Source of the DNA: Candidatus Falkowbacteria bacterium
Lineage (GTDB): Bacteria > Patescibacteriota > Patescibacteriia > UBA11705 > JACRDX01
Direction: 5' to 3'
DNA: 55,639 nt
NCBI GenBank assembly: GCA_043798985.1
Contig: JAZDOE010000023.1
Coordinates: forward strand, 69,626 to 125,264
Shown here: positions 1 to 48,640 of the stretch, one piece after another
Layout: each line of letters opens with the position of its first letter
Position numbering within the stretch: the stretch's first letter is position 1
Translations under genes and position numbers: made by a program
Notes under the pieces: model-generated
What the model was told of the DNA's origin: nothing
The model's input: the letters and a program-made list of their open reading frames with translations, nothing else
The model's database searches: none

Positions 1-1701
1 TACCGTCGTCATTCCTTGCACTGCTTTAATCAAACCATCCTGATATAGTGTCATCATTTTATTTTTTTCCAACTCTTTGCTCGCAACATCATGTTTAAAT
101 CCATCGGCAATGATTTTACGCATGTTTTCAGTGATTGAAAAAATTTCCGACAAAACAACTCGACCAGAATAGCCTGTGTTTTTACAGGCAGAGCACCCAT
201 GACCATGCCAACCGACCAATTCTTTGTCCAACAAACCATCGGGCAAATGCTCTTGCGGAATGCGCCCCAACTCACGCTGGATTTTTTTCAAAATTTCAGG
301 CGGAAACGCGACTTGCTCTTTGCATTTTTCACAAATGCGGCGCGCCAACCGTTGCGCTATTACCAAATTCAACACAGACGCCAGCAAAAACGGCTCTACT
401 TTCATGTCAATCAACCGCGGAATCGCGCCAAGCGCGTTGTTCGTGTGCAAAGTTGAAAAAAGCAAATGTCCGGTCAGTCCGGCATGAACGACCATTTCAG
501 CTGTTTCATTGTCGCGAATTTCGCCAACCATTATAATGTTTGGATCTTGGCGCAAAATTGACCGCAAACCATTGGCAAAAGTGAAGTTGACGTCAGGATT
601 GATTTGCGACTGGTTCACGCCGGCAATATTATATTCAATCGGATCTTCCAACGTGACGATGTTCACGTCTTCTTTGTTCAAAATGTTCAAAATAGAATAT
701 AGTGTCGTGGATTTTCCAGAACCAGTCGGACCCGTGACCAGCGCCATGCCAAAAGGTTTTTTGATTTCTTTCTCAACAATTGATACAAAATATTCTGAAA
801 AACCAAGCTGCTGCAAAGGTTTGGCGGCTGACGCGGCGTCCAAAAGCCGCATTGTCACTTTTTCTTTGCCCAACAATGGCATTGTTGAAACGCGGAGATC
901 AATTTCTTTTTTACCAATATTGATTTTAAAACGACCATCTTGTGGCGCGCGAGTTTCATCAAGTTGGAGGCGCGCCAAAACTTTGACGCGCGAGACGATT
1001 GAGTCGTGTAGGCCCAACGGAATTATCAGCGCCGTCTGTAAAACGCCATCAATGCGATATCGCACCCTTGAATCCCGGGCGTTTGGTTCAATATGAATAT
1101 CCGAAGCCCCATTTTCAACGGCATGTTTGATGACAATTGAAACGATTTTTGAAACCGGCGCGCTTTTTATCACTTCACCAATCGGCGCGGTTTCCTGATC
1201 ATCATCCGTTTCCTTTGCTTTGTCCGCCTCCTCTTGAACGGCTGGCGCGACTTCTTCGCCGATTGAGGCATAGTTCGCGTAATGCTTTTCCCAGCCAGCG
1301 CGCGAGCACAAATATAATTCTATGCTATATCCTTTTCCATTTGCCCAAAATCCAATTGCCTCGCCAGCGTTAAAATCTTCTGTTTCAGCAAAAGCAATTT
1401 TCAAATGCGCGTCAGCCGCGTCAAAACAAATTGCCCGATATTTTTTAGACAAATCTTCGGGCAAAATCTGAACCACTTGTTTCGCGAGATCAATGTTCAC
1501 CAAATCAACAAATGGAATGCCGCGCAACGTTGCTTTTATGGGCAACAATTTTTCTTCGCTCGCATAGCCGCCTTTTACCAATATTTCTTCCAGCGGCTGG
1601 CCGGTTTTTTCCAAAAGCTGCCGAATCTCAAAAGACTGCGCCTGCGTAATAATGTTTCGCGTCAAAAGAATATTTAAAAATTGTTCATTGGAATAATTCA
1701 T
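1..1701 (-). CDS. pilB: Type IV pilus/T2SS assembly ATPase (PilB/GspE family), runs off the left edge of the window
   Basis: Not in the ORF track; hand translation from ATG 1701: MNYSNEQFLNILL...ASDIHIEP...RYRIDG...PQDGR...Walker A GPTGSGKSTT, TLEDPIEY, LRQDPNIIMVGEIRD, TGHLLFSTLHTN, CEKC. Lies downstream of pilMNO. Confidence 0.9.
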   Translation of the reverse strand, partial: MNYSNEQFLNILLTRNIITQAQSFEIRQLLEKTGQPLEEILVKGGYASEEKLLPIKATLRGIPFVDLVNIDLAKQVVQILPEDLSKKYRAICFDAADAHLKIAFAETEDFNAGEAIGFWANGKGYSIELYLCSRAGWEKHYANYASIGEEVAPAVQEEADKAKETDDDQETAPIGEVIKSAPVSKIVSIVIKHAVENGASDIHIEPNARDSRVRYRIDGVLQTALIIPLGLHDSIVSRVKVLARLQLDETRAPQDGRFKINIGKKEIDLRVSTMPLLGKEKVTMRLLDAASAAKPLQQLGFSEYFVSIVEKEIKKPFGMALVTGPTGSGKSTTLYSILNILNKEDVNIVTLEDPIEYNIAGVNQSQINPDVNFTFANGLRSILRQDPNIIMVGEIRDNETAEMVVHAGLTGHLLFSTLHTNNALGAIPRLIDMKVEPFLLASVLNLVIAQRLARRICEKCKEQVAFPPEILKKIQRELGRIPQEHLPDGLLDKELVGWHGHGCSACKNTGYSGRVVLSEIFSITENMRKIIADGFKHDVASKELEKNKMMTLYQDGLIKAVQGMTTV

Positions 1702-1713
1702 TTTTGTAAAATA

Positions 1714-2019
1714 CTACTGCGCCTTAAACGGATTGTCTTTTTTATTTATTTTGGTTTTATCAATATTCAATGGAAATTCCGCTTGCAATTTTAATTCGCT
1801 GAAACGTTTTTCGTTCGCGATTTTATCTTTCAATTCAACAAAGTTTAATTCAACTTGCTCTGTCGCGCCGCCGCTTGTTGATATGGTCTGACCCTTTAAC
1901 AAAATTTGCGGCGCGAAATATTTCAAATTGACAATCAAAATCGCGAACAACAAAAACGCTGCCAGCACTATCCAAAATGCTATTTGCCACGCCTGTTTTT
2001 TATTTTCGCTCGTTAACAT
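1714..2019 (-). CDS. Small single-TM protein in pilus operon (positionally PilP-like; family not recognised)
   Basis: 101 aa ORF with one N-terminal hydrophobic helix, between pilO and pilB, same strand. Confidence 0.6.
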   Translation of the reverse strand: MLTSENKKQAWQIAFWIVLAAFLLFAILIVNLKYFAPQILLKGQTISTSGGATEQVELNFVELKDKIANEKRFSELKLQAEFPLNIDKTKINKKDNPFKAQ

Positions 2020-2021
2020 AA

Positions 2022-2089
2022 TATTTCAATATTGAGACATTCGAATTTCTAATTTGTTTCGTATTTAGTGCTTCGGATTTCGAATTTCA
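2022..2089. repeat. 7-nt-periodic (TCGAAAT-like) repeat family, partial copy
   Basis: aatttgtttcgtatttagtgcttcggatttcgaattt closely matches the copies at 6741, 10627, 21701 and 30950. Confidence 0.8.
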
Positions 2090-2091
2090 TA

Positions 2092-2692
2092 TTAGTCAAT
2101 CGGCAAATAATACGAGGTCAAAATCACGACATAACCTTGCGTTTGCGGCGAATAATTTAAGGCTTTTATATCCATTAGCCGCAAACTGTTTGTCGCGTCA
2201 GCAACAAATTTTTTCAATATAAAATAATCACCTCCCATCAAATTTAAATTCATTGTGACAGCCTGAACTTTGCCAATGGTATTTTTTTCACTTTTTGGCA
2301 ATTCTGCGTTAAACGATGACAGTGTCAACTGATTTTTTTTTGGCGATTTCTGAAATTTGCAAATATAATTCTGGCAATTCAGCATCATACGGCAAAGCAG
2401 AATAAAGTTTTTTCACCGAACTTTCCATTTGCGACAAATCCAGTTTTGCGGATTTTAATGACACCAATTTTGCCTGTTGTTCTGTTAAACTTTTTTCCAA
2501 ATTGGCCAGTTGAGACAACGGCGCGCGCACATCAGCTTTGTAATGGTAAAATCCGCAAAGCAAAATCACAAACACCAAAATCAAAACAAAACCCATCAAA
2601 ATGCTGTCCTGATAAACATGCGCAAAACGAAAAAGTGCGTTTGGCTTTTTGTCAGCGTTCATCTGATGCTCTTGTTTTATTATGTCAACCAT
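2092..2692 (-). pseudogene. pilO: PilO-like pilus assembly protein split by a frameshift in an A9 run (could be an assembly error or phase variation)
   Basis: ORFs 2309-2692 (TM, coiled coil, LPYDAELPELYLQISEIAKK) and 2092-2388 (NQLTLSSF...GGDYFILKKFV...RLMDI) join into one 199-aa protein if one A of the run at 2333-2341 is removed; span 601 nt = 3n+1. Located after pilM-pilN. Confidence 0.75.
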
Positions 2693-2715
2693 ATAAAAGC
2701 CCCAGTTACCAATTA

Positions 2716-3564
2716 CTAGTTACCAGCCCCTATTTCGTTTAAAAACGCGTCGGCTAATTCCAAATTAACTTGAAAACTAACTTGCCCTGGTTTTGTTCCA
2801 GTCAGACTGCCGGAATTTATTTCAACTTTTTTCACAAAATCGGTCGCGCCCTGAAAAACTTTTAACTGCAATGCCAGTTGCGTGTAATCATCCGCGACCG
2901 CTGACAATGTAATCTTGCCATTGTCTTCAGCAACCAAATCATTGTAATCCACTGCTGGCAAAGTGTACGCTTCCAGATAATTAAAAAACTTTCCCCAATA
3001 AACATGCTTGTCCAACAATGATTTAACTGCCGCGAAACGTTTACTGATTTTTACAAAATCGCTCTGGCTGGATTCGTATTGTTTAATTTCCCGCTGAACA
3101 AGCGCCAGTTGTTTGTTGACTTGAATTTGGTTATCCAAAACTTGCAAATTGTAAAATTTTGCTGCGCTGAAAACAATGCCATACAGCAGAGCAAATACAA
3201 AAACTACTCTTGCCATTTGTGCCAGCAAAACAAAAAAATCTTTTTTATAAATTTCTGTGTTTTCCACTTTTAACAAATCCATTGTCAATTTCGCGCGGCG
3301 GCTAGACCTGCCAAGGTCAAACAACCCTGAAAAAAATTGTTTAACTCCGCCCGAAGAACCAACCACTTTTGTCTTGCCAACCAACACGCGCGGCTGTTCG
3401 ACTTTTTTCTGCTGCAACAACTCTTTGTAAGTTTCTCGCGGAGCAACAACAGCCAGCCGTTCTATTTTTTTGCCATTATTAATTTGCCGTAACTTAATTT
3501 CTTCCGGCGACATTTTCGCTGGCAAGTCCCCTTTTCTTAATTCTTCTGGCAACAAATTGATCAT
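2716..3564 (-). CDS. pilN: PilN-like pilus assembly protein
   Basis: Starts MINLLP (typical PilN N-terminus), one TM helix then coiled coil and ferredoxin-like end; directly after pilM. Confidence 0.65.
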   Translation of the reverse strand: MINLLPEELRKGDLPAKMSPEEIKLRQINNGKKIERLAVVAPRETYKELLQQKKVEQPRVLVGKTKVVGSSGGVKQFFSGLFDLGRSSRRAKLTMDLLKVENTEIYKKDFFVLLAQMARVVFVFALLYGIVFSAAKFYNLQVLDNQIQVNKQLALVQREIKQYESSQSDFVKISKRFAAVKSLLDKHVYWGKFFNYLEAYTLPAVDYNDLVAEDNGKITLSAVADDYTQLALQLKVFQGATDFVKKVEINSGSLTGTKPGQVSFQVNLELADAFLNEIGAGN

Positions 3565-3566
3565 AA

Positions 3567-4661
3567 TTAAAAGTTGCGAAGCGCCAGCCCAATCGCAGGC
3601 GCGAATCGCGGCCCGATTTCATCCAAAATCGGTTGCATTTCCTCCGGATAAATAATGCGCGCCCATGGATTTCCAACAAATGCTCTGATATTAAAAATGG
3701 TTTCTAGATGTTTTCCAAGATTCAAAAGATTGGCTGACCCGCCGGATAAAATAATTCGTTCAATTCTTTTATTCTGATTTCCCGGCTGTTCAAGGAAAAA
3801 GTTTATAACGTAGCGCATTTCATTCACAATCGGTTCCAAAAAATCTTTAAACGCTTTTGGCATTTGCATTTCAGAATTATGATTTCCAGCCAAATGCGCG
3901 CCCAAATCTCGTTTGAATTGTTCTGCGGCTCCAACGTCCGTTCCTAGTGTCCTTGCCATTATGGCGCTCAATTGCGTGCCGCCATGCGTGACACTGCGCT
4001 CAATATAAGGAATACTGTTTTCAACGATCACGACAGTCGTATCACTCGCGCCAAGATCAACTATCATTGCCACTGATTTATCATTGCCGAGCAATGCGCG
4101 CGTCAAAGCAAATGCTTCTGTTTCCAAACTTATCAATTCCATACCGGCGCGCTGGAAAGCATCCAGATATTTTTGAACGACTTTTTTTGCCGCGCCGGTG
4201 AGTAAAACCTGCGCGCTTTTCATTGCTTTGTCATTTTTCACACCTGTCACACTTTCCAAAACTTTCCAATCCAAAATCATTTCGTTCAATGGCAAAGGCA
4301 CAACTTTTTTCGCTTCCCACTCAACGGCCGCTGATAATTTTTTAGGAGATGTTAATTCGTCTTTTGAAATATTCGGTAAATTGATAATCGTAGAAAAAAC
4401 CGCGTTTGATGGCAACGCGCTGATTGCTTTCTTCGTTTTTACGCCAGCCTTTGTCGCAACTTCTTTCAAAACCTCTGCCAAACGTTGCGGCTCGTCCAAC
4501 AAATTCCCGATCTTTTCGCCCATTAGCCGCTCCAAATAACCGTAAGTTTCCAACTTCGGATGACCCGCGCCAACAGACAACTCCACCATTTTCACGCTGG
4601 CTCCGCCAATATCAATACCCAAAAAGCTTTGACCCTTTTCTTTTGAAAATAAATTAAACAT
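3567..4661 (-). CDS. pilM: Type IV pilus assembly protein PilM (actin-like)
   Basis: FLGIDIGGASVKMVEL, AVEWEAKKVVPLP, MIVDLGASDT, IILSGGSANL, APAIGLALR. Confidence 0.92.
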   Translation of the reverse strand: MFNLFSKEKGQSFLGIDIGGASVKMVELSVGAGHPKLETYGYLERLMGEKIGNLLDEPQRLAEVLKEVATKAGVKTKKAISALPSNAVFSTIINLPNISKDELTSPKKLSAAVEWEAKKVVPLPLNEMILDWKVLESVTGVKNDKAMKSAQVLLTGAAKKVVQKYLDAFQRAGMELISLETEAFALTRALLGNDKSVAMIVDLGASDTTVVIVENSIPYIERSVTHGGTQLSAIMARTLGTDVGAAEQFKRDLGAHLAGNHNSEMQMPKAFKDFLEPIVNEMRYVINFFLEQPGNQNKRIERIILSGGSANLLNLGKHLETIFNIRAFVGNPWARIIYPEEMQPILDEIGPRFAPAIGLALRNF

Positions 4662-4667
4662 ATCTTT

Positions 4668-4676
4668 ATTTTACCA
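4668..4676 (-). promoter_or_regulatory. Extended -10 promoter (TGGTAAAAT) 6 nt upstream of pilM ATG, probably leaderless mRNA
   Basis: Minus-strand TGgTAAAAT-aaagat-ATG; no SD. Confidence 0.5.
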
Positions 4677-4719
4677 CATTTTCCGCATTACCGCCAAATT
4701 TAAATGGGGATAAATCCAA

Positions 4720-4800
4720 TGTCATTGCGAGGAGTCTGCGACGAAGCAATCTGGGCCTCGTACCAATTACGAGATTGCCACGCAAAGCCTCGCAATGACA
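4720..4800. repeat. CGTC/TGTC-tagged REP-like palindrome, full copy
   Basis: Perfect 13-bp terminal inverted repeat tgtcattgcgagg...cctcgcaatgaca with inner gcaatct...agattgc stem. Confidence 0.85.
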
Positions 4801-4804
4801 GCCG

Positions 4805-6289
4805 CTATTCAGTAACCCAACTCGGCAAACCTTTCGCAATATCCGCAAACCCCGGCGGCGTATTTGCCAAAACCCTGCCGTCATAAATAATTTGTTCTGC
4901 CGGCGCTTTTGTCTGCAAATCAACAAATTCTCGCTGAAATTCAAAAACCTGCGCAACCATTAGCCCACCAACTTTTAGTTGTTTTTTGCTCGCGCCTGTT
5001 GAAATTTTTCCTTCCGCGTAAAAATTACCAACCAAATTCTCAACATCCGGCGCGATTATAATATTGCCGGCTAAACCATTTTTTTTCAAAACAATCACGC
5101 CCAACGAAGCAACCTCTTTTGTGTTTTTCACTGGCGTTTGCTGGTAACCGATATTGTTGTTGATATTCAAATTTCCACGCACAACCAACGTGCCGTTACC
5201 CAATTTGCCGTTTATGCCGTTGTTGATAATCCAGTCGCTGTTCAATTGCAAATCGCCATCATAATAATAAACCTGCCCATTCAGCGGATTATCAATATCG
5301 CCAAACATTTTTATGTCCTCGCGCAAACCAGATTGCCCGGCAAGCAATCCTTTTACATTCAAAAATCCCAATTGGTCGGCGTAATAATTGTTTTCAGTTT
5401 TCGGAAAGCCAAGTTTAACATTTTCCTGCTCGCAATTTTCGCCGCACGCGCTGTCAAAGTGCACAATTTTACCGCCAGCTTGCAATAAAAATGTCGCGTT
5501 GCTTTTTCCAGTTGGCGCGGTTGGCGTGTAAAGCGAACCAATGTTGCCGCCCGAATAAACATCACCAACAACATTCACGTACGGACCATGAACTTCGGTT
5601 GATGAAAATTTCGGATGAAACGAAAACCAGCCAAAGCCAGAGTTGCTGGCCGTATCCCCGTTCCAACCCCAACCTGCCAAAGTGTTTGTCGCAAAATCAA
5701 CGGCCATTCCATATTCATAACACGTTGAACATGCCGCACACGTTCCCGCAACAAGGTCGCAGGATGAACAGTCTGCGCAAAAATTTCTAGAGCCAGCAAC
5801 CTGCTGGTCTGAAAAACAAAAAGAGCAATTTTTGTCGCCCTTGTCGCAATTTCTGCATTGATAAAATTTCGCAAACGCGTTTGCAGATTGTTTGCCAATC
5901 AATTTCATCCAACCGTTTGTCCCCAAAACAGGCCAAGCCGCCCAACCAGAGATTAAGCCATTGGCTTGCAATCTTGCTTCTGGCGCCAATCCTTCTGGCG
6001 TCACATTCAAACCAAAATTTTTACAACTTGTGCCAAAGCATAACCACCCGCCATATTCTGACCACGCCAATCCGGACAAAGTTTGTCCGCTTTTGTCATA
6101 ATCAACGCCATAATCAACAAAGCAGGCATTCGCAATTTCTTCGTTGTAGCAATTCATTGAAACCCAGCCGATGTTTTCTGACCATGCCCAGCCGCGGATT
6201 TTGTTGCTTTTGCCAGCAAAAATATCAGCAGACGGCAATATAACCGCCAATAGTAAAATTACTGCGATAACAAAAACCCTCCGGTTCAT
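4805..6289 (-). CDS. Secreted protein with GWAW...GW repeats and a Cys-rich segment, upstream of pilM
   Basis: 494 aa; signal-like N-terminus; repeats GWAWSENIGWVSMNC, GLAWSEYGGWLCF, GWGWNG..GFGWFSF; several CxxC motifs. Confidence 0.75.
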   Translation of the reverse strand: MNRRVFVIAVILLLAVILPSADIFAGKSNKIRGWAWSENIGWVSMNCYNEEIANACFVDYGVDYDKSGQTLSGLAWSEYGGWLCFGTSCKNFGLNVTPEGLAPEARLQANGLISGWAAWPVLGTNGWMKLIGKQSANAFAKFYQCRNCDKGDKNCSFCFSDQQVAGSRNFCADCSSCDLVAGTCAACSTCYEYGMAVDFATNTLAGWGWNGDTASNSGFGWFSFHPKFSSTEVHGPYVNVVGDVYSGGNIGSLYTPTAPTGKSNATFLLQAGGKIVHFDSACGENCEQENVKLGFPKTENNYYADQLGFLNVKGLLAGQSGLREDIKMFGDIDNPLNGQVYYYDGDLQLNSDWIINNGINGKLGNGTLVVRGNLNINNNIGYQQTPVKNTKEVASLGVIVLKKNGLAGNIIIAPDVENLVGNFYAEGKISTGASKKQLKVGGLMVAQVFEFQREFVDLQTKAPAEQIIYDGRVLANTPPGFADIAKGLPSWVTE

Positions 6290-6737: not shown

Positions 6738-6740
6738 AGT

Positions 6741-6855
6741 AAAATTCGAATATCGAAATACGAAACAAATTAGAAATCAGAATGTTCCAATATTGAAACA
6801 TTGTGATTTAGTGCTTCGAATTTGTTTAGAACTTCGAGCTTCGTGCTTCGGATTT
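6741..6855. repeat. 7-nt-periodic hairpin repeat; overlaps recJ stop and encodes its last residues
   Basis: aaattcgaatatcgaaatacgaaacaaat...tttgtttagaacttcgagcttcgtgcttcggattt; quasi-palindromic. Confidence 0.85.
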
Positions 6856-8574: not shown

Positions 8575-8623
8575 AGTTATTACATTTTATCACATTAAAT
8601 TTTTTTTTGTAACCCCGTTTTCC

Positions 8624-8653
8624 TGTAGAGACGAGATATATCTCGTCTCTACA
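8624..8653. repeat. GTAG-tagged perfect 30-bp palindrome
   Basis: tgtagagacgagata|tatctcgtctctaca; related copy inside recJ at 7934-7957. Confidence 0.85.
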
Positions 8654-8765
8654 TATATAAATACCATTTCAAAAACCCTTCGCAAAATTGAGGGGTGTGT
8701 ATAAATGCACCCCGTCATTCACCCGCCAAGAGCTCACGCACTTTGGCGGGTTGATTGAAACAATC

Positions 8766-8796
8766 AAAAAACCGCGGAATTAATTTAATCCCGCGG
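8766..8796 (-). terminator. Intrinsic terminator after the 8816 gene
   Basis: ccgcgg...ccgcgg stem followed by a T tract on the minus strand; a second hairpin acccgccaa...ttggcgggt at 8721-8751. Confidence 0.55.
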
Positions 8797-8815
8797 CAAG
8801 CGCATTGCGCTTTCG

Positions 8816-9523
8816 CTACAACACATCCCATGTCACAGCCTTAACAGCCAAACCGACTTCTGCCAGCTTTGGGTCAAGATACTTTTTCAGCAGGTCAAGA
8901 AATGCCGCCTGCTGCTCTGTCCGCAGTGGATTGTAAAACTCGGACAACTCCTTGCTGTGCGCGTCGTTGAAATCATACACGACAAGCTTCACGAGCCGCA
9001 GGTATCGTGCTTCGAATTGCTCGTGCGACATCTGCCCGTCGTATGGCGCCATAGCAACGACTGCCTCCACGAACTTCTTGACGTCAACTTCTTCAAACGC
9101 TACCGTGTAATGGACTTCCCGAACTTTCGGGTTCTCGGTGATCGGCTTTACCACCGTCGAAATCGGCTTCGGGCTTGCGGTGTAGTTCACACAGTTGTCA
9201 TAATTCCACGCGAGTGGCACATTAACATCAACAACCTTGCCTTGCTCGTCTAATGTCGCCAATCTTGCTGCGAATGGGTTGGTCGCCCTTCCAATATCAG
9301 ACTGCCAACTATCAGACTGCCAACCCTCTCCGTTGAACTCTACGACCAACGGCGCGAAAAGCAATGCCACTGTGAGCAAGCAACATACCATGAATCCCAG
9401 CGCGATGAACTGCTGCACTCTTCTACCTCTCCGCACACGATCAGCATTTGCGACCTTGCAACCCAACACAATCGCGCCAAGAGCCAGCACCACAATCACC
9501 GCCAACCAAATCCCTGTTGCCAT
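8816..9523 (-). CDS. Two-TM membrane protein, GC-rich, SD-led; weak SPFH-like C-terminus
   Basis: Start moved to ATG 9523 because GGAGGT lies 6 nt upstream; two hydrophobic helices; candidate promoter TTGCTT(9602-9607)-17-TAATCT(9579-9584). Confidence 0.7.
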   Translation of the reverse strand: MATGIWLAVIVVLALGAIVLGCKVANADRVRRGRRVQQFIALGFMVCCLLTVALLFAPLVVEFNGEGWQSDSWQSDIGRATNPFAARLATLDEQGKVVDVNVPLAWNYDNCVNYTASPKPISTVVKPITENPKVREVHYTVAFEEVDVKKFVEAVVAMAPYDGQMSHEQFEARYLRLVKLVVYDFNDAHSKELSEFYNPLRTEQQAAFLDLLKKYLDPKLAEVGLAVKAVTWDVL

Positions 9524-9626
9524 GACCGCACCTCCCTGTTGAATTTCCATTGTCAAAGTCCACTTTTCCCAACAGCTAAGATTAACACACCCAAAAACAA
9601 AAAGCAACCCCTCGCGAAATTGCCAC

Positions 9627-11495
9627 CTACCGTTTCATCACCGCCAAATAAGCATCCGGTGGGATATTAACCCGTCCACGCCCCATTTCCATCATTTTCT
9701 TTTTTCCCTTTTTCTGCTTTTCCAAAAGCTTGGCGCGTCGTGTCCAATCACCACCATACAACTTTGCTGTCACGTCTTTTCGCAATGCCGAAATCCTTTC
9801 CGACGCCAGCACTTTGCCACCAACCATTGCCTGAATTTTAATCACAAACTGATGCTTTGAAATCTTATCTTTCAATATTCCAACGATCTTTTTGCCAATT
9901 TGAAACGCCATGTCGCGGTAAATAATCAGGGCAAACGCCTCAGCCGGCTCCTCGGCAATGAGCATGTCCATTTTTATCAAATCAGCTTTTGCGTATTTGT
10001 AAAAATCATAGTTCATTGACGCGTAGCCAGAACTGACGGTTTTCAATTTGTCGTGAAAATCAACGATCAACATTGAAAGCGGAATGCGATAATGCAACAA
10101 CGCGCGCGTTGCCTCAAGATATTCAGTATTCAAATATTCGCCGCGCATTTCCTGCGTCAACTGCATTACCGCGCCCAAATATTCTTTTGGTGTGACGATA
10201 TCAACGGTCATAATCGGCTCTTCCATGTGATCAATCTGCGACGGGTCTGGAAACTCATTCGGATTTTTTATAATGTATTCAACGTCTGACAAAATCTGAT
10301 TTTTTTTCAAATTCGGCGGAAATTTATTTCCTTTTTTCAAAGCAACTTTATACGCCACGCTCGGCACTGTCACAATAATCGCCAGATTAAATTCCCTGCG
10401 TAATCTTTCCTGAAAAATTTCCAGATGCAACAAACCGAGAAAGCCACAGCGAAAACCAAATCCCAAAACAGGAGAACTTTCCGGCTCATAAATCAATGCC
10501 GCGTCATTCAATTTCAACTTGGCAATCGCCTCGCGCAATTCATTATATTCATTCCCCTCTTCGCAAAAAATTCCAGCGTACACCATTGGTTTTACTTCTT
10601 TGTATCCGGGCAACGGCAAAATTTCGGATTTCGAATTTGGAATTTGTTTCGGATTTAGTGCTTCGGATTTGATAAGCGTATCTCCAACTCTACATTTTTC
10701 AATATCCTTCAACCCTGTGACGACATAGCCAATATCTCCGGCTGACAATTTGCCGGTTGAAAATTGTTTTGGTTTTAAAATGCCGCAATCTAAAACTTCG
10801 CCGCGCTCGCTCGCGCCAATCATGCAAATTTTATCGCCCTTTTTTAGTTGTCCATCCATCAATCTGACGTATGCAACGACGCCTTTGTACTCGTCGTAAA
10901 AAGAATCAAAAATCAACGCGCGCAACGGCTTTGCCGTGTCAGTTTTCGGCGCAGGCACTTTTTCAACTATTGAACACAAAATTTGTTCAACGCCCGCGCC
11001 TGTCTTTGCCGAGCACAATAAAATTTCATCTTCTCGGCATCCAACCAATCCCACAATTTCTCGCTTTGTCCTTTCAACGTCAGCCGCAGGCAAGTCAATT
11101 TTATTTATCACCGGAATAATTTCCAAACCCTGTTCAATCGCCAAATACAGGTTTGCCAAAGTCTGCGCCTGAACACCCTGCGTCGCGTCAACCAACAGGA
11201 TCGCGCCCTCAACCGCTGCCAAGGATCGCGAAACTTCGTACGAAAAATCCACGTGGCCCGGAGTATCAATCAAATTCAGAACATATTGTTCATTGCCAAC
11301 TTTATAAGCCATGGTTGCAGGCGTCAATTTAATCGTAATGCCGCGCTCGCGCTCCAAATCCATTGAATCCAAAATTTGATTTTTCATTTCACGTTTATCA
11401 ACCGTGCCAGTCAATTCCAAAAGCCGGTCAGCCAACGTTGATTTGCCATGGTCAATATGCGCGATAATGCAAAAATTCCGGATATTTGAAGACAT
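9627..11495 (-). CDS. lepA: Elongation factor 4 (LepA)
   Basis: NFCIIAHIDHGKSTLADR, ERERGITIK, DTPGHVDF, GFRCGFLGLLH, RKDVTAKLYGGD. Confidence 0.98.
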   Translation of the reverse strand: MSSNIRNFCIIAHIDHGKSTLADRLLELTGTVDKREMKNQILDSMDLERERGITIKLTPATMAYKVGNEQYVLNLIDTPGHVDFSYEVSRSLAAVEGAILLVDATQGVQAQTLANLYLAIEQGLEIIPVINKIDLPAADVERTKREIVGLVGCREDEILLCSAKTGAGVEQILCSIVEKVPAPKTDTAKPLRALIFDSFYDEYKGVVAYVRLMDGQLKKGDKICMIGASERGEVLDCGILKPKQFSTGKLSAGDIGYVVTGLKDIEKCRVGDTLIKSEALNPKQIPNSKSEILPLPGYKEVKPMVYAGIFCEEGNEYNELREAIAKLKLNDAALIYEPESSPVLGFGFRCGFLGLLHLEIFQERLRREFNLAIIVTVPSVAYKVALKKGNKFPPNLKKNQILSDVEYIIKNPNEFPDPSQIDHMEEPIMTVDIVTPKEYLGAVMQLTQEMRGEYLNTEYLEATRALLHYRIPLSMLIVDFHDKLKTVSSGYASMNYDFYKYAKADLIKMDMLIAEEPAEAFALIIYRDMAFQIGKKIVGILKDKISKHQFVIKIQAMVGGKVLASERISALRKDVTAKLYGGDWTRRAKLLEKQKKGKKKMMEMGRGRVNIPPDAYLAVMKR

Positions 11496-21696: not shown

Positions 21697-21700
21697 AGCT

Positions 21701-21840
21701 AAATTCGAAATCCGAAATACGAAATACTAAACAAATCCCAAATCCGACCACGCCTGCCGGCGGGCAGGAATCAGAATGTTTCAAACATTGGAAAATTCAA
21801 ATTTCGTGCTTGTTTCGAGCTTCGGATTTCGTGCTTCGTA
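21701..21840. repeat. 7-nt-periodic hairpin repeat with a nested CCTGCC...GGCAGG palindrome (21753-21768)
   Basis: aaattcgaaatccgaaatacgaaatactaaacaaat...cctgccggcgggcagg...ttgtttcgagcttcggatttcgtgcttcg. Confidence 0.85.
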
Positions 21841-21847
21841 CTTTATT

Positions 21848-30941: not shown

Positions 30942-30949
30942 ATTTGTTA

Positions 30950-31070
30950 AAACTCGAAAACCGAAGCACTAAATCCGAAACAAATTCCAAATTCGAAATC
31001 AGAATATTTCAAACATTGGTACATTCTAATTTCGTGCTTGTTTAGGATTTCGATATTCGTATTTCGTATT
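30950..31070. repeat. 7-nt-periodic hairpin repeat between grpE and dnaK
   Basis: 30961-31000 is identical over 40 nt to the reverse complement of 10627-10666 inside lepA. Confidence 0.9.
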
Positions 31071-31072
31071 TA

Positions 31073-31619: not shown

Positions 31620-32324
31620 TTATTTTAATAATTTAACGCTTTCTTTTACCAACGCGTAATTTTTTTGATAATCCATGCGTTCTGGGCCGAGCAATCCAAT
31701 AATTCCTTTGAGCTCTCCGATTCTGTATTGAAAAACTATCAAAGTACACCCGCAACCAATCGGATTTTCATGCCCAATCAAAATTTCAGGCTCGTTAAAA
31801 TCTTTGTTTTCTAAATCTTTCAAACGCTTGTCCAGATGCTCAACAACAGCCGACAAATTAACAACCAATTCTTTGTTTTTAAATTCCGGCTGGCTGAAAA
31901 TATTGGCAAGGCCAGTATAATAATTATCGCATTCTGTAAACGTCACCATCACGCCTTGCTTTGAAAAATTGGCAATGGCTTTCGCGAAATTTTTTACTTT
32001 TATTTTATCGTCAACTTCTTCCTTTTTTATTTCTTCCAGAACAGTTGTCTCTTTTTTACTAAGCTCGCGCTCTTTATCTAAATAATTTTCAATATAAAAC
32101 TGGTAAGCTTTTTCAGTCGGAACGCGGCCGGCTGATGTGTGCGGCTGGAAAATAAAACCTTCGTTTTCAAGCGCGACCATTTCATTGCGAACAGTTGCTG
32201 GGCTGACTTTTTCTTTAATTTCCCCAACCAAAAAACCGGACGACAAAGGTTCGGCATTTTTAACAAATGTTTCAATAATTTTTTTCAAAAGTTTTTTCTG
32301 CCGCTCCGTTGGCATAGCCATCAA
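31620..32324 (-). CDS. hrcA: Heat-inducible repressor HrcA (short form)
   Basis: ERQKKLL, SPATVRNEM, QPHTSAGRVPT, GLLGPERMDY; 234 aa; downstream of CIRCE. Confidence 0.9.
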   Translation of the reverse strand: MMAMPTERQKKLLKKIIETFVKNAEPLSSGFLVGEIKEKVSPATVRNEMVALENEGFIFQPHTSAGRVPTEKAYQFYIENYLDKERELSKKETTVLEEIKKEEVDDKIKVKNFAKAIANFSKQGVMVTFTECDNYYTGLANIFSQPEFKNKELVVNLSAVVEHLDKRLKDLENKDFNEPEILIGHENPIGCGCTLIVFQYRIGELKGIIGLLGPERMDYQKNYALVKESVKLLK

Positions 32325-32440
32325 AAATTTCTAATTTTCAATTTCAAATTTTAAATGAATTTTTAAACCAAAATTTCAAAACATTCGAACATTCAGACAT
32401 TAAACATTGATTAAAAATTCAAAATTAGAAATTAAAAATT
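32325..32440. repeat. AT-rich 7-nt-periodic hairpin repeat (AAATTCA subtype) in the hrcA leader
   Basis: aattttcaatttcaaattttaaatgaattt...aacattgattaaaaattcaaaattagaaatt; same subtype as 53245-53360. Confidence 0.75.
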
Positions 32441-32450
32441 CTTTACTATT

Positions 32451-32479
32451 ATTCTATCAAACAAATTAGCACTCGTCAA
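32451..32479 (-). promoter_or_regulatory. Sigma70-type promoter of the hrcA operon
   Basis: TTGACG(32474-32479)-17-TAGAAT(32451-32456) with extended TG; overlapped by CIRCE. Confidence 0.7.
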
Positions 32480-38498: not shown

Positions 38499-39897
38499 TT
38501 TTCATGCTTAATATTTTTGTGCCGGCCAAACCAACGCCGATTGGCAACCACATCCGCGCGATAAAGTAAGAAGTTGAAAATAATTCAAAAACAACCAGCG
38601 CGACCAGCATCATTAAAAACGCTAAAATTATATTTTTACTTTTTTCCGTTTCCGCCATTCTATAACCATCAATATATTTTTTAAAACAATAAACTAAAAT
38701 TCCCAAATATCCTATCAACCCCAGCGCACCCGTTTCAACCAGCAGCTTTTGAGCAAAACCATGCGAATCCAAAGGATCGCCAAAATCAACAAAGTAGACA
38801 AACGTTGAACCAAGTAATTTTTGAAAAGTGTTCAAGCCATTTCCAATCACCGGATGTTGCGCGAAATATTCCATTGAAATTTGCGATGACATCAGCCTGT
38901 TGCTGTTGGACAACTGAATAAGATTTAAATTTTGAAACAATGAAAGATAAAAAATAATCGGCAATATTATTAAACATAAAATTACAAAGCCTGTGAGTTG
39001 TTTGCCCCATTTTTTTCTATAATAAACAGCCAAAATAATTATAAATTCCACCAGCAATGCCAGCCATCCGGAGCGCGAATAAGTCAAAATTGTTGTCACC
39101 ATCAATGCGCCAAGTATCAGAACCAACCAATTTTTCACCCTTGTCCTCTGCTCGTTCAAAATAAAAATCAATACTATCGGAATTGTGACAATCAACACTT
39201 CCGCGATCGCGTTATGATTACCGCCCAATGGCGAAAATCCCCAAAAAGAATATGGGACAGCGCGATGAGCAAACCAGCCGCCTTCAGCCGTTGCCACCGA
39301 AAACAGCCCCATGATCATTACCGCGACACCAACAATAAACATGATTCGCAACACGCCAAACAATCGCTTCTGCGTTTTGATCATGTCATACGGCAAAACA
39401 ATGAACATCAAATAAAAAAACAAAAGCGGCCGCAACCAATATCTGAACCCCAGCAAAATATTGTCATTATTGATTATTGACAGGGCACTCACCACCAAAA
39501 AAAACAACGCTGCTCCAAGCGCTGGAAAATCTCTAAAACCAATGTGATTTGTTTTTGTCCACGTTATCAATTTTTTAATCAGCCACGCGCCAAAAACCAG
39601 CAATGCGAGCAAATCAACATATGGCAAATTCAATGCGCCTATTTTAAATTCCCACGCGACAAATGGATAGAAAAAAATCATTAAATAGAAAGCAAAATCA
39701 ATAAAATGAACAACGAGCATTAACGCGAGAACAACCAAATCAGCGGCGATTACATACCACGGATCAACAAAAAACATCGCGATTAAACTGGCGCCAGCCA
39801 AAATCAGCAACACAACAATCAACAATTTTGAAAAATCATTGGCGTTTGATTCTATTAAAAATTGTTTTAATTTCTTTATCATTTTGTCATTGGACAT
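38488..39897 (-). CDS. O-antigen ligase/Wzy-like polymerase family membrane protein
   Basis: About 12 TM; TYSRSGWL, HPVIGNG, SHGFAQKLLVETGALG. Confidence 0.85.
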   Translation of the reverse strand: MSNDKMIKKLKQFLIESNANDFSKLLIVVLLILAGASLIAMFFVDPWYVIAADLVVLALMLVVHFIDFAFYLMIFFYPFVAWEFKIGALNLPYVDLLALLVFGAWLIKKLITWTKTNHIGFRDFPALGAALFFLVVSALSIINNDNILLGFRYWLRPLLFFYLMFIVLPYDMIKTQKRLFGVLRIMFIVGVAVMIMGLFSVATAEGGWFAHRAVPYSFWGFSPLGGNHNAIAEVLIVTIPIVLIFILNEQRTRVKNWLVLILGALMVTTILTYSRSGWLALLVEFIIILAVYYRKKWGKQLTGFVILCLIILPIIFYLSLFQNLNLIQLSNSNRLMSSQISMEYFAQHPVIGNGLNTFQKLLGSTFVYFVDFGDPLDSHGFAQKLLVETGALGLIGYLGILVYCFKKYIDGYRMAETEKSKNIILAFLMMLVALVVFELFSTSYFIARMWLPIGVGLAGTKILSMKNEQ

Positions 39898-39914
39898 TGA
39901 TTGAAAATTGATAA

Positions 39915-40910
39915 TTAAAAATTAAAAATTTTCTTACTGATAATCCATTGCGCGACTGTCTGCCAATGTCTTTTTATTGCCGTTCGCGCGGTGCAAATCA
40001 TCCAATAATCAACTTCATATCCCTTTAATTTGTCTCGCGCGGACTGCGCTTCGTCGGAAAACCAAAATTCCTTAAAATCTTTTAGCTCGCTAATATTGCC
40101 CATTATAATGTTATCCATCACGGATGGATAAATATCGCCCTTTGGGTCAAGATAAAAAAAGTCTTGGCCAGAATAACTTGGTAATGGCGCGCGCCGTCCT
40201 TTAATAATATCAATTAAACCATTTATAAAATACGCGCGCGCCCAATTTTTAGGATTAAATCCTTGAACAAACTTTTTGTTCAACTCAACTAATGCGCTGG
40301 CTAATTTCTGCTTGGCGGCTGGCAACTTATTTTTTACCCCGCCGAAATAAAAGTCAGAACTTTGTGCCAAAGCCATGGTAAAACCAATTCCTAAATTTTT
40401 AGAAAACTCAAAAAGTTTATTTAAGTCCTTATAATTATCGCCTGTCATTGTGAACGCGATTTTAACTCTTTTCCCACCCAATAGGGCTTTGGCAAATATT
40501 AAACTATCCAAAACTTTGTGCCAGCCGCCATCTATTCCTCGTATTTTTTCATGCATTTTTCCAAAACCATCAACAGAAATATTTAATTCAATATTTGGCG
40601 CGGCTTCCAAAATTCTAGGCAACTGCTTTTTTATCACATCAACCAAAAAGCCGTTTGACGAAATAACAAGCCGCGCTCTTGGGGCGGCTCGCCTAATTTC
40701 CTCTATTATTTCAACCAAATCAGAACGCAAAAACGGCTCGCCGCCAGAAATATTTATATCCCTTAAACTGGTCGGCAACCTTTTGTACGTTACAGCAGGC
40801 ATTTCTGGAAAATCTTTGATTTTCCAGATGCCGCACATTGTGCAACGCGAATTACAGCGATATGTCACCGCAACAACCGCGTCAACTGGCATTTTTATTT
40901 TTAGTTGCAT
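39915..40910 (-). CDS. Radical SAM protein with degenerate SPASM/twitch region
   Basis: CNSRCTMC, ISGGEP, ISSNG, SVDG; start at 40910 (7 nt after TGcTATAAT) or 40892. Confidence 0.88.
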   Translation of the reverse strand: MQLKIKMPVDAVVAVTYRCNSRCTMCGIWKIKDFPEMPAVTYKRLPTSLRDINISGGEPFLRSDLVEIIEEIRRAAPRARLVISSNGFLVDVIKKQLPRILEAAPNIELNISVDGFGKMHEKIRGIDGGWHKVLDSLIFAKALLGGKRVKIAFTMTGDNYKDLNKLFEFSKNLGIGFTMALAQSSDFYFGGVKNKLPAAKQKLASALVELNKKFVQGFNPKNWARAYFINGLIDIIKGRRAPLPSYSGQDFFYLDPKGDIYPSVMDNIIMGNISELKDFKEFWFSDEAQSARDKLKGYEVDYWMICTARTAIKRHWQTVAQWIISKKIFNF

Positions 40911-40936
40911 ATGCCAAATTATAGCACAAATTAACC

Positions 40937-40972
40937 AAAAGAAAAGCGCCTTGATACTTTGTATCAAGGCGC
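40937..40972 (-). terminator. Intrinsic terminator of the 1550-aa gene
   Basis: Perfect 12-bp stem gcgccttgatac-ttt-gtatcaaggcgc followed by TTTTCTTTT on the minus strand. Confidence 0.85.
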
Positions 40973-40995
40973 ACTACTACTTTGTCAACGCGTCT

Positions 40996-43900
40996 TTATA
41001 AGCACACATTGACAAACACGATCTCTCCTTCTCCGCCGGGATCAATGACCCCGACACGAACCGAGTACGTCAGCTGCCCACCGCCAGTATAGTAGCACGA
41101 AGCCACCACGCTCGGGGTCCACTGATACAGGTTCCCATTCTTGCAGTTGAAATCAATCCAACCAGACTCTGCCGGAATGGTCAGATTTTCTCCGCGCTCG
41201 CACACCTGCGGTGCGCTCGCGCTCCACGTGGAGTTGTTCGTGGCTCCTTCCCACGAGTACCCCGGAGCTCCGCCCCACCAGACCACTGGCACGTATCCGG
41301 CCGGACACACGAAGTCGCAGGCGAGCAGATTCAATGGACACCCGTTGTCCACCTTGCCGTCGCAGTCATTGTCCAGCCCATCCCCGCAAACCTCCTTGCC
41401 GGGAATCTTGAATGGGCAGTCGTACTCACAGCCATCGTCCGCGACCTTGTTCAAGTCATAGTACGACGAATCGCAGGACAGCACCGTGCACTCTCCCGCG
41501 CTACAACCAACCGTTGCCACGTGCGGCAGAAGCGCGCAGTTCGTATCGCACCCACCGCAATGGCTTGGGTCAGACGCGAACGCGAAGTCCTCATCCACCT
41601 TGCCGTCGCAGTCATTGTCAAACCCGTCGCACTGCTCCCCTCCCTGCACAACGCACGGGCCGTACTCGCAGCCATTGGCCGCGATTCCGTCCACATTGTA
41701 GTACATGGCATCGCACGCGACGAGCTGGCACACGCCATTGACACAGGCCGCGCTTGCATTTGCGAACGAGCACTTGTTCCCGCACTTGCCGCAATTCAGC
41801 GGGTCAATCGCGAGATTGAAGTCCTCGTCGATCTGCTCGTCGCAGTCATTGTCAAAACCGTCGCAAATCTCCGGCACCGCTGACTTGCCGCCGAGGCATT
41901 CGCCCCATTTTCCAGCAACGCATGTCTGCGTGCAAACCTTGCAAAGACCTTCGTCCGTTCCATTGGTCTTGGTCTCACCGTTTTTGCACGAACAACCTTC
42001 GTTGAAACTGCCATCGCAGTCTTCGTCCTTGCCAGACGCATCGCAATCCTCCGGACCTGCGAACACGCAAACGTATTCGCAGCCATTGGCCGCAACGCCA
42101 TCCAGATCAAACCGATTCGGCAGACAGGAATCTACCGCACACTTGCCTTTCTCGCACTTCGCAACCGCGCCGTCAAGCGAACACACGTTTCCGCACTGCC
42201 CGCAATTCTGGCTGTCAGACTGGACATTGAAGTCTTCATCCACAAGCCCGTCGCAGTCGTCATCCACTCCATTGCACTTCTCCACACCAGCATTCAGGCA
42301 CAGATACTCGCAACCATTGGACGCGTCCTTGTCCGCATCGTAGAACAGCGCGTCGCATGCGCCCATCAGGCACTTGCCATTTCCACACAGCGCTTGCGCT
42401 CGCGGGAACCAGCATTCATTTCCGCACCAGCCACAATTGGCCGGGTCAGTCTGCATGTTGAACCCATTGTCCACCGCGCCGTCGCAGTCATTGTCCTTGC
42501 TGTCACACAGCTCAGGTACTGCCCCCACGCCGCCGACACAGTCAGTCCACTCTCCGCCAAGGCAGAATTGCAAGCATGGCTCACACTCTCCCTCGTCAGA
42601 GCCAACCAGCATGAACTCCTCATCCTTGCATTTGCAGTCTTCGTTGAAACTTCCATCGCAGTCTTCGTCTTTCATGCCCGCGTCACAGAGTTCAACCCCG
42701 CTTGGCGTGCACTTGTACTCGCAACCGTTTTCAGGCTGTCCGTCCAGATCGTAGAATCCCGGCTGGCACCACGAAACAATGCACTCGCCATCATCGCAGC
42801 TCACAAACGCCTTGTACAACGAGCACACATTGCCGCACTGGCCGCAGTTGCTCACTTCGGACGAAAGGTCAAACCCCTCGTCCACCAGCCCGTCGCAGTT
42901 GTCGTCAACGCCATTGCATTTCTCCACACCCGCATTCAGGCACAGATACTCGCAACCATTGACCGCGTCCTTGTCCGCATCGTAGAACAGCTTGTCGCAG
43001 GCTCCGAGCTTGCACTCGCCATCCACGCACATTGCCTGCGCGTTCGCGAACGAACACGAGTGACCGCACCAACCACAGTTGGCCGTGTCGGTCTGCGTAT
43101 TGAAGTCCTCGTCAACCGAACCGTCGCAGTCATCGTCCGCATTGTTGCAGAGTTCAGGCGCCGGCGTCTTACCGCCAAGGCACAAACCCCACTTCCCGCC
43201 AACGCACGTCTGCGTACAAGCGACACACTCACCCTCGTCCGTGCCACCTGTCTTGGTCTCGCCGTCAACACAGCCGCAACCCTCATTGGCGCTACCATCG
43301 CAATCTTCGTCAACCATTGCGATGTCGCAGACTTCCGCACCAGTCGTAGTGCATTTGTACTCGCAGCCATTTTCAGGCTGTCCGTCCAAATCCACGTATC
43401 CGGTATTGCAGCCGTCCACCAAGCACTTGCCGAAGAAGCAGACATTGTTGCTAACCTGCCACAGGTTGCACACCTTGCCGCACTGCCCGCAGTTGTTCAG
43501 GTCGTTGAAGAAATTGAAATCCTCGTCAACCTGACCGTCGCAGTCGTCGTCAACGCCATTGCACTTCTCAACCCCGCTCGGAACGCAAGCATACTCGCAT
43601 CCATCAGCAGGGTCGTTGTTCACGTCGTGGTAAAAGCCCGTGCATCCTCCCATTTTGCACAAGCCAGCGACGCACAGCGCATTGGCATTGGAAAACGTGC
43701 AGACATGCCCGCACCAGCCGCAGTTCACAGGATCAGCCATCAGGCTGAAATCCTCGTCAACCGAGCCGTCGCAGTCATTGTCGCTGTAGTCGCAGACTTC
43801 CGGCGTCGCAGAAACTCCGCCAACGCAATCAGACCACTGACCGTCAACACACGTCTGCGTGCACTTCTGGCAAACTCCCTTATCCGTACCAACGGACTTG

Positions 43901-45648: not shown

Positions 45649-45730
45649 TTTGTCCTCCTTGTATCTTGTCTCGAGTTGTCAAAAAACACCAGAAATTTGC
45701 CTGCAAAACAGGCAGTTTCCAGAACAGGTA

Positions 45731-45759
45731 ATTTTAGCGCGTTCAATTCATTTTGTCAA
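45731..45759 (-). promoter_or_regulatory. Sigma70 promoter of the 1550-aa gene
   Basis: TTGACA(45754-45759)-17-TAAAAT(45731-45736). Confidence 0.75.
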
Positions 45760-45774
45760 GCACAAGTCCGTATG

Positions 45775-45845
45775 TAAATTTACACAAGCTCCGCCGCGCT
45801 GGCAAGGTAAAAGAAAAAGCCCCATGCATGTTAGCATAGGGCACC
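45775..45845. repeat. Terminator plus conserved tail, copy 1
   Basis: taaatttacacaa-c.ccgccg-...-ggtaaaa-aaaagcccc-atgc..gcat..gg.gc, also at 47137-47200. Confidence 0.7.
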
Positions 45846-45885
45846 AAGATTGTTTTTCGTCCCTCTCGGTTTAGGACAGCTGGTT

Positions 45886-46998: not shown

Positions 46999-47067
46999 GG
47001 CTCACCTCTCTAATTGTTTGATTTTCAAGTTTCAACATTATCGTAGGCACACACCTACGAACAAATC

Positions 47068-47096
47068 ATTATATCATATCCTAACAAGAAAGTCAA
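47068..47096 (-). promoter_or_regulatory. Sigma70 promoter of the 45886-46998 gene
   Basis: TTGACT(47091-47096)-17-TATAAT(47068-47073) with extended TG; leader hairpin tcgtagg...cctacga at 47041-47060. Confidence 0.8.
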
Positions 47097-47136
47097 CTGC
47101 CGCGCCTTAATATTATCTAACTTTACACACATTCTC

Positions 47137-47200
47137 TAAATTTACACAAACCCCGCCGTTGACAGGGTAAAAAAAGCCCCAAATGCGTTGCATTCGGAGC
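47137..47200. repeat. Terminator plus conserved tail, copy 2
   Basis: Imperfect direct repeat of 45775-45845, in the same position relative to the upstream gene. Confidence 0.7.
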
Positions 47201-47240
47201 TTGCCAGGAATATTATTGTCCATCCTGACATGGACTCGGT

Positions 47241-48083: not shown

Positions 48084-48223
48084 GGCATCACCTCCAAAAA
48101 GTTAATTGCCAATGTTCACTCTGTCTCGATCCTTGACACCCGTCAAGAACCCAGAAAAGTGGGGAAACCCGTGTTAGCGTTTCCCCGTTTTTGGCCATGC
48201 CCCGTTGGGACACAGCCGTCGCG

Positions 48224-48640
48224 CTACTTGTCGCGGATGTGCACCTCTGTCGTTGTGACCGAATCCACGACATAGTACGTGCAAGCGCCAAGTGCCACAG
48301 CCCCGCCGACGTATAGCGCGTAGTCCCAGAAACCCGCGTCCTTCGTCTCGGGCTGGACACTCTGCAACGGTGCAATCGGAGCTGCCGGCACATAGACGGT
48401 CATCTTGCCGCCATTTTCCATGACCATCTTCCCCTTGCCTGCCGGAGCGACGACCTGCACCACCCCCTTTGGGCAATCCAGCTCGTTCTTGGCGTTATCC
48501 TTGCACGTACAACCCGAGGGAACCTCGAGCAGTCCGCACATGACCACCGCCGTTCCGTTCACCGGAGCCTCCTGCGCCGTCACCACGGTCGCGAACATCA
48601 CTGCCACCGCCATCACAACCAACGCAACGATCTTTCTCAT
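48224..48640 (-). CDS. Small secreted protein with C-terminal hydrophobic helix
   Basis: GGAGGTG SD before ATG 48640; signal peptide ...VVTA|Q; four Cys in the soluble region; FWDYALYVGGAVALGACTYYV. Confidence 0.75.
   Translation of the reverse strand: MRKIVALVVMAVAVMFATVVTAQEAPVNGTAVVMCGLLEVPSGCTCKDNAKNELDCPKGVVQVVAPAGKGKMVMENGGKMTVYVPAAPIAPLQSVQPETKDAGFWDYALYVGGAVALGACTYYVVDSVTTTEVHIRDK

Follow-up and report, generated by a model that had tools for sequence, protein, structure and literature searches.

A 7-nt repeat arm within the lepA gene of a Patescibacterium, its 40-nt identity with an intergenic copy, and the case for recent patching of an older array

The lepA gene, which encodes elongation factor 4, occupies bp 9627–11495 on the minus strand of a 55.6 kb stretch of DNA from a Candidatus Falkowbacteria bacterium (contig JAZDOE010000023.1). 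This stretch, called the window below, is the part of the genome that the analysis covered. Inside the gene is a short array of 7-nt units that resembles one arm of a dispersed repeat, and a segment of the array is identical to a copy located between grpE and dnaK. The lepA open reading frame (ORF) has 622 codons, and the precomputed Pfam domains of its product are GTP_EFTU (PF00009), GTP_EFTU_D2 (PF03144), EFG_C (PF00679), and LepA_C (PF06421). Aquifex LepA (2YWE) matches the product over residues 3–621 with E = 4e-203, and the structures 3CB4 and 4W2E match it as well. Judged by these domains and by full-length similarity to solved elongation factor 4 structures, the product is a member of the elongation factor 4 family.

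The array extends from bp 10617 to 10670 and supplies 18 codons in frame, those for LepA residues 276–293. The coding-strand reading of the segment is AAATCCGAAGCACTAAATCCGAAACAAATTCCAAATTCGAAATCCGAAATTTTG. The first-pass annotation had placed this coding copy in the linker between domains II and III, and two lines of evidence agree with it. In the alignment to 2YWE, the array residues fall in a 10-residue gap of the Aquifex protein, between GDTIT and PVPGF. In an AlphaFold model based on 60 sequences, the array is a coil that leads from the last strand of domain II, residues 273–276, to the first strand of domain III, residues 305–311. The predicted local distance difference test score (pLDDT) is below 50 at residues 284–289, and the neighbouring strands are predicted well. 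By alignment and model, the array site is the domain II/III linker. Across the LepA family, linker lengths of 11–47 residues are tolerated here. Read in frame, the arm contributes 18 unstructured residues to a surface loop of LepA, and the encoded peptide is probably neutral baggage rather than a functional module.

The array is 54 nt long, with about 6.5 heptamers and the core GCACTAAATCCGAAACAAATT. Its units are AAATCCG, AAGCACT, AAATCCG, AAACAAA, TTCCAAA, TTCGAAA, and TCCGAAA. As part of an explanation that we consider probable as a whole, bp 10617–10670 represents a solo arm from a dispersed, AT-rich family of repeats, common in the ultra-small Patescibacteria, which we name heptad-armed. 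Its members consist of two inverted arrays of ~7-nt units that enclose a short palindromic centre or, in other places, a small cargo gene. The lepA stretch contains the canonical arm core, AAGCACTAAATNCGAAACAAATT, exactly. The inverted partner arm is absent, and no hairpin is formed (fold z-score −0.3). The earlier claim that LepA contains a piece of an intergenic 7-nt-periodic repeat is thereby sustained, the piece being a single arm of the repeat family.

A full palindromic element fills the spacer between grpE and dnaK. It extends over bp 30942–31072 on the minus strand, 131 nt bounded by the grpE stop at bp 31073 and the dnaK start at bp 30941, and folds as a hairpin of −35.8 kcal/mol (z = −4.45). 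The window has exactly two occurrences of the 40-mer GATTTCGAATTTGGAATTTGTTTCGGATTTAGTGCTTCGG, on the plus strand at bp 10627–10666 and on the minus strand at bp 30961–31000, the latter in the dnaK-side arm of the element. As had been annotated, one copy is the reverse complement of the other at 40 of 40 bases. The lepA copy, read on the minus strand with the gene, is the putative conversion tract discussed below.

Several comparisons set this match apart. No equal 40-nt match appeared in 100 dinucleotide shuffles of the window. When 66 pairs of heptamer regions from the window are compared, the exact matches that follow it in length are of 22 and 18 nt, making 40 nt an outlier. The wider similarity is 53 nt at 92%, between bp 10618–10670 and bp 30957–31009; all four mismatches fall in the 13 flanking bases and none in the 40-nt tract, for a hypergeometric probability of 0.0024 with boundaries chosen post hoc. 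The exact 40-mer had no match in 241 million metagenome records. Its absence there indicates that the identity is not a mere frozen consensus of the family, and an invariant family consensus was rejected as the source on this ground.

Could the identity have been produced by the assembler, either by threading the dnaK-upstream repeat into lepA or by merging strain variants? The genome was assembled from a metagenome, arms of this family are extremely abundant in samples of that kind, and the source reads were not found among public runs. On the other hand, the match is one unbroken 40-mer with lepA on both sides, and a switch of assembly path would not return to lepA and would leave the gene broken. 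The reading frame is uninterrupted, and the array junctions equal those of an independent assembly, that of the relative L001 described next. In addition, a 40-nt repeat should be shorter than the usual reads and final k-mers. An artefact seems very unlikely to us.

The history of the array can be followed in the nearest relatives, L001, L081, and L204, which are P0002, P0003, and P0009 in a LepA tree built without the loop columns. The window groups with L001, and then with L081 and L204; support for the clade is 100%. LepA of L204, 86% identical to the window in amino acid sequence, has a plain loop of 12 residues, ITLVEAKDKVSP, and no array. LepA of L081, 88% identical, has a 15-residue loop, VVNLEIRNLKLEITP, made of TTAGAAA units that recur in an intergenic element of the same contig. 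LepA of L001, 96% identical, also has a 15-residue loop, LTKSEILNSKSEILP. The window loop, with its heptamer array, has 21 residues. The L001 DNA reads CTT ACT AAATCCGAAATCCTAAATTCGAAATCCGAAATTTTG CCA, and both junctions are the same as in the window. The arrays of the window and L001 have 33 of 36 bases in common and differ by one codon and an 18-nt extra piece. The codon is that for A279, GCA in the window and ATC in L001. The extra piece, AATCCGAAACAAATTCCA, encodes NPKQIP; in the codon alignment it occupies bp 10638–10655 (minus strand) in the window and is absent from L001 lepA. The GCA codon and the 18-nt piece both lie inside the 40-nt tract, and both equal the dnaK-upstream copy.

These relatives date the two events. 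Divergence between the lepA genes of the window and L001 at four-fold sites is 0.37 (0.51 with the Jukes–Cantor correction), and a neutral 40-mer would be expected to have undergone roughly ten changes per lineage since the split. With this divergence, the 40/40 identity cannot predate the split and must be recent. Conversely, L001 has an array at the same site with the same junctions, so the array itself predates the split. Sequence comparison thus shows that, by the time of the split from the nearest known relative, a heptamer array had already entered the native 12-residue loop or taken its place, and that the 40-nt identity arose after the split. Set against the plain L204 loop, the window, L001, and L081 show no visible target-site duplication; the native loop was replaced, and old duplications could have been lost. 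In the L081 genome, the grpE–dnaK spacer holds an unrelated GC-rich palindrome.

The first-pass annotation proposed recent insertion or ongoing gene conversion. The part that stands is recent copying between the coding and non-coding copies; recent insertion does not, given the L001 array with the same junctions. Gene conversion fits in the form of a recent patch of at least 26 and at most ~40–53 nt. Part of the peptide, KSE...NSKSEIL, is ancestral in the sense of being common to L001. A279 and NPKQIP are found in the window only, and L204 has no array at all.

Two other origins of the lepA sequence are to be weighed against this history. In one, a fragment of an intergenic arm was recently inserted into a repeat-free LepA loop. 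The 40-nt identity would follow, such arrays demonstrably land in this loop (see below), and L204 represents the array-free state. The array in L001, with identical 5′ and 3′ junctions and so many bases in common, is nevertheless older than the silent divergence of the two genes, and an insertion finds no visible target-site duplication to support it. We therefore judge a fresh insertion to be quite unlikely. In the other, the 18 nt arose in situ by slippage in a heptanucleotide microsatellite, and the identity is convergence. The stretch is indeed 7-nt periodic, and array length does differ between relatives. But 18 is not a multiple of 7, and the irregular units AAGCACT and AAACAAA of the gained piece are ordered exactly as in the canonical arm and the dnaK-upstream copy, whereas slippage would duplicate neighbouring units. 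Slippage is extremely improbable.

We propose instead, as the probable course of events, a recent patch of an older array by gene conversion or templated repair from an intergenic arm. An old lepA array, present in the ancestor common to L001, would have been overwritten in its middle by an ectopic, non-reciprocal recombination event. The event may have been primed by heptamers common to both copies, AAATCCGAA on one side and TTCGAAATC on the other. The donor would have been an arm of an intergenic element, either the dnaK-upstream copy or another copy, identical to it, at some other place in the genome. The outcome would be one changed codon, 18 nt added, the frame kept, and a 40-nt tract identical to the donor. 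Among such events, the only survivors would be those that keep the frame, avoid stops, and put a hydrophilic peptide into a loop that tolerates it. That the window gained the 18 nt is suggested by the 15-residue loops of both L001 and L081, and by the nature of the gained piece, a canonical core typical of intergenic copies.

Several points weigh against the proposed patch. The search of public runs for the source reads returned at best 0.09 of the sampled words, and a 9-kb query returned no run, so that the assembly is unconfirmed by reads. The true donor may be another copy, outside the 55.6-kb window. The direction of the gain is assigned by parsimony with two outgroups, and a loss of 18 nt in L001 is the alternative. 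The grpE–dnaK spacer of the L001 genome was not found, its DnaK being absent from the protein collection searched. Finally, the 11 array codons common to L001 have no silent change (0.70^11 = 0.02), which could hint at constraint at the nucleotide level; equally long runs of identical codons occur elsewhere in lepA, and the signal is not significant.

The domain II/III loop is a recurrent landing site. The loop is lengthened at exactly this site in 25 of 120 LepAs from Patescibacteria, and on the tree of these 120 proteins the long-loop state requires a minimum of 14 changes. At the DNA level, heptamer arrays of at least five unit types are found at the same loop. The window and L001 have AAATCCG units, L081 has TTAGAAA, L082 has AAAATTC together with a GC-rich piece, and L083 has ACGAATT. 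L207 has AATTTCC units in the opposite orientation (periodicity 0.82), and L208 and L209 have decayed AAATTCA arrays. Turnover can be rapid: four LepAs, P0022, P0031, P0033, and P0067, are 93–96% identical outside the loop and have loops of 25–47 residues with unrelated content.

A second insertion site in LepA is a β-hairpin of the G domain, after window residue 67 (bp ~11292–11297 of the window). In six LepAs (P0020, P0043, P0045, P0050, P0053, and P0055), a whole GxxExxY / PD-(D/E)XK domain of 139–162 amino acids is found in frame. The families of these in-frame G-domain inserts are PF13366 and TIGR04256. In L019 (bp 1068–3359), the TIGR04256 domain is bracketed by inverted GCGGACT/AGTCCGC arrays. 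In L007 (bp 3001–4932), a whole cargo-less element of 87 nt, of the CGAAAT type, lies in frame at the same G-domain site. Cargo is found outside LepA as well. At bp 1830–2360 of L209, a four-helix-bundle gene (TIGR02436 / 23S intervening sequence (IVS) protein / Avd-like) lies between inverted GGTAATT/AATTACC arrays; this gene is 4 kb upstream of a LepA gene whose loop contains a decayed heptamer array.

A bolder proposal can be built on these insertions, namely that the arrays are more than passive debris and that an active templated process in Patescibacteria writes or overwrites short arrays, and whole cassettes, at permissive sites. The process could involve the cassette proteins themselves, either the four-helix-bundle Avd-like proteins or the GxxExxY PD-(D/E)XK nucleases. 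The G-domain hairpin and the domain II/III linker of LepA would then be preferred landing pads, and the 40-nt patch in lepA would be a fresh trace of the process, not of ordinary RecA-type conversion. We hold this proposal to be unlikely.

The arm family is widespread. At least 120 metagenome contigs contain the 21-nt core GCACTAAATNCGAAACAAATT, and the arm has the consensus AAAATTCGAAATyCGAAGCACTAAATCCGAAACAAATTC, whose outer edge is sharp. Summed contig depth in four unrelated metagenomes from groundwater and lakes is 430–1500 over bp 10636–10659 versus 2–50 on the lepA flanks, and the loose ends of the aligned contigs diverge at bp 10620–10628 and bp 10656–10670. None of the contigs in these four metagenomes is ≥99% alike to the window; they represent relatives and the abundant arm family only. 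A link between the repeat and phages was considered and rejected, as the 22-nt core had no match among viral contigs and a blastn search with the full element had none in 50,697 phage records.

Translation of the arm is not peculiar to lepA. In other metagenome contigs, the canonical arm is translated in genes for a ValRS-like protein, LeuRS (twice, at one site), ComEA, and TatD. Two of the three sense frames of the arm are open, and the same two are used in these genes, one reading STKSETNS. A further case may be seen in L083, where the ACGAATT heptamers of the LepA loop also occur at bp 4571–4602, inside a PfkB-family kinase gene (bp 4163–5161) and apparently in frame. Within the window, the last nine residues of RecJ and its stop, KSEARSSKF*, are read from the outer arm of an element at bp 6826–6855 (minus strand), in the same frame as the lepA arm. 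RecJ of L001 ends differently, with KSGAG*.

The spread of the core bears on another possibility, that the lepA arm is kept identical as a functional nucleotide sequence, either a protein binding site or an RNA signal. Candidate binders would be the four-helix-bundle or GxxExxY proteins of full cassettes, since such cassettes pair arrays of this kind with small putative nucleic-acid-binding proteins. Strong conservation of the arm core, seen in hundreds of contigs, and the lack of silent changes in the codons common to L001, are in its favour. However, the loop content turns over completely among close relatives, the unit type varies by lineage, the silent-site signal falls short of significance, and L204 does without an array. 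Moreover, the cargo gene is absent from the window, where tblastn found no four-helix-bundle or GxxExxY homologue. We consider a selected binding site or signal decidedly improbable.

How does the lepA arm compare with known systems? Rickettsia palindromic elements (RPEs) are dispersed palindromes found between genes and also in frame in housekeeping genes, being translated there at places that the protein fold can accommodate (Ogata et al. 2000, as reviewed in PMC10969869). There is a likeness of behaviour: RPEs, like the elements here, are dispersed palindromic repeats of ~100–150 bp, both intergenic and in-frame intragenic, that add extra peptide segments. In-frame entry at tolerated positions is seen here in lepA, in the ValRS-like, LeuRS, ComEA, and TatD genes, and in the LepA G domain of L007. 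There are also differences. The host here is a Falkowbacteria-like Patescibacterium, judging by its nearest LepA and DnaK matches, and the likeness does not extend to a claim of membership among the RPEs. The arms here are arrays of 7-nt units, and lepA holds one arm rather than a whole palindrome. The same protein loop has been colonised repeatedly by different unit types, related heptad elements carry cargo genes (four-helix-bundle or GxxExxY), and the sequences bear direct signs of a later exchange, probably by conversion, in which one copy is coding and the other non-coding.

Bacterial transposable elements of the miniature inverted-repeat kind (MITEs) found within genes, such as ERIC/IRU, Correia, and BOX, are short, non-autonomous, inverted-repeat elements (PMC10969869, PMC2759123). 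Like them, the heptad-armed elements are short and non-autonomous with inverted repeats, are co-transcribed with neighbouring genes, and are occasionally intragenic with open frames. They differ in having long heptamer arrays as their inverted ends instead of short terminal inverted repeats; a target-site duplication is not visible, nor was a cognate transposase noticed in the window. A further parallel is provided by the ORF-bearing IVSs of 23S rRNA and by free-standing four-helix-bundle cassettes (TIGR02436 / PF05635, Avd-like), as inverted heptamer arrays of this kind bracket a four-helix-bundle gene in L209. The window copies, by contrast, are without cargo, and the lepA piece is a single arm. 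To our knowledge, no mechanism of mobility has been established for this class.

Ectopic conversion among REP/BIME or insertion sequence (IS) copies likewise gives sharply bounded identity between diverged copies, with short flanking homology. Here, the recipient lies inside an essential gene, the frame had to be preserved, and the tract is very short (~40–53 nt at most). Other known systems were considered and set aside. REP/BIME sequences with RAYT are GC-rich imperfect palindromes of 20–40 nt that have a conserved tetranucleotide head and are associated with a RAYT gene; the elements here are 115–150 nt, AT-rich, and made of 7-nt arrays. A heptanucleotide contingency locus has perfect tandem units, and a change in copy number shifts the frame. 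The lepA units are imperfect and follow the canonical-arm order, and the 18-nt difference keeps the frame. The variable region of a diversity-generating retroelement (DGR) belongs to a pair of template and variable repeats that differ at adenines and lie beside a reverse transcriptase. The copies here are identical over 40 nt, and their flanking mismatches have no adenine-specific pattern; no search for a reverse transcriptase was made. A full-text literature search found no description of heptamer-armed elements in Patescibacteria. We read the whole as a selfish-DNA event of an ordinary kind, located at a hotspot of insertion that is striking. What is new is a single arm, rather than a whole palindrome, within a gene; the repeated colonisation of two LepA loops by different array types; and a dated exchange between coding and non-coding copies, for which conversion is the likely mode of copying.

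The finding means that, in these genome-reduced bacteria, an essential gene for a universally conserved translation factor tolerates selfish repeat DNA within its coding sequence and goes on exchanging it. With two recurrent landing loops across the whole radiation, LepA may serve as an alignable marker for dating and counting insertion and conversion. Conversely, the LepA loops are hypervariable even at 93–96% identity; they should be masked in phylogenies, and they can mislead assembly, binning, and homology-based annotation. If the arrays are recognised by cassette proteins, they would offer a way to learn what the four-helix-bundle (23S IVS protein) and GxxExxY families do.

The window contains further members of this family of AT-rich, 7-nt-periodic quasi-palindromes, which sit where genes adjoin. 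Period 7 is enriched, with nine regions at a threshold of 0.63 versus zero or one for other periods from 4 to 10. Besides the copy upstream of dnaK, full elements lie between recJ and rnhA (bp 6738–6855, minus strand), the first 30 nt of which encode the C-terminus of RecJ, and between mreB and a glycosyltransferase gene (bp 21697–21847, minus strand; z = −4.23), where a GC-rich hairpin is nested. The three full copies, all of the CGAAAT type, fold as long hairpins of −30 to −48 kcal/mol (z = −4.2 to −4.6), and none of 200 shuffles folds as well. One arm and the central motif of the CGAAAT type are found at bp 2022–2096 (minus strand), directly upstream of the ATG of the ORF at bp 1714–2019. 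Heptad regions of other unit types are at bp 32314–32455, 39881–39944, 49662–49731, 50303–50378, 51127–51219, 53240–53370, and 55158–55214. An Rfam scan of the window found the tmRNA and one tRNA only, with no match on the repeat elements. The ORF at bp 2309–2692 was examined as a candidate cargo gene and rejected as PilO-like. At just 127 amino acids, this PilO-like ORF could be a truncated or split gene. Between two ORFs resembling pilus-assembly genes, bp 2700–2730 hold a short GGTAACT/AGTAATT heptamer array.

Some minor observations concern other parts of the window. The smpB gene (bp 52774–53250) and the tmRNA gene (bp 53367–53793) are flanked as a pair by inverted copies of a TACAAAT-type heptad element, at bp 52635–52751 and bp 53796–53912; the copies are 117 nt each and 80% complementary. 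The heptad hairpin at bp 53240–53370 sits between the two genes. Next to lepA, about 1 kb (bp 8575–9626) separates lepA from recJ and contains a 263-residue ORF (bp 8816–9607, minus strand) without a Pfam match, as well as GC-rich hairpins. L001, L081, and L204 lack this stretch, recJ following lepA within 20–370 nt, and it has the look of an insertion specific to this lineage. In the recJ leader, at bp ~8626–8653, is a perfect 28-nt palindrome, GTAGAGACGAGATATATCTCGTCTCTAC. Lastly, an ORF of 1550 codons at bp 40996–45648 (minus strand) consists of tandem repeats of ~640 nt with conserved cysteine/aspartate-rich motifs, and the block around it, bp 40000–50000, has a GC content of 55–59% versus ~42% elsewhere in the window.

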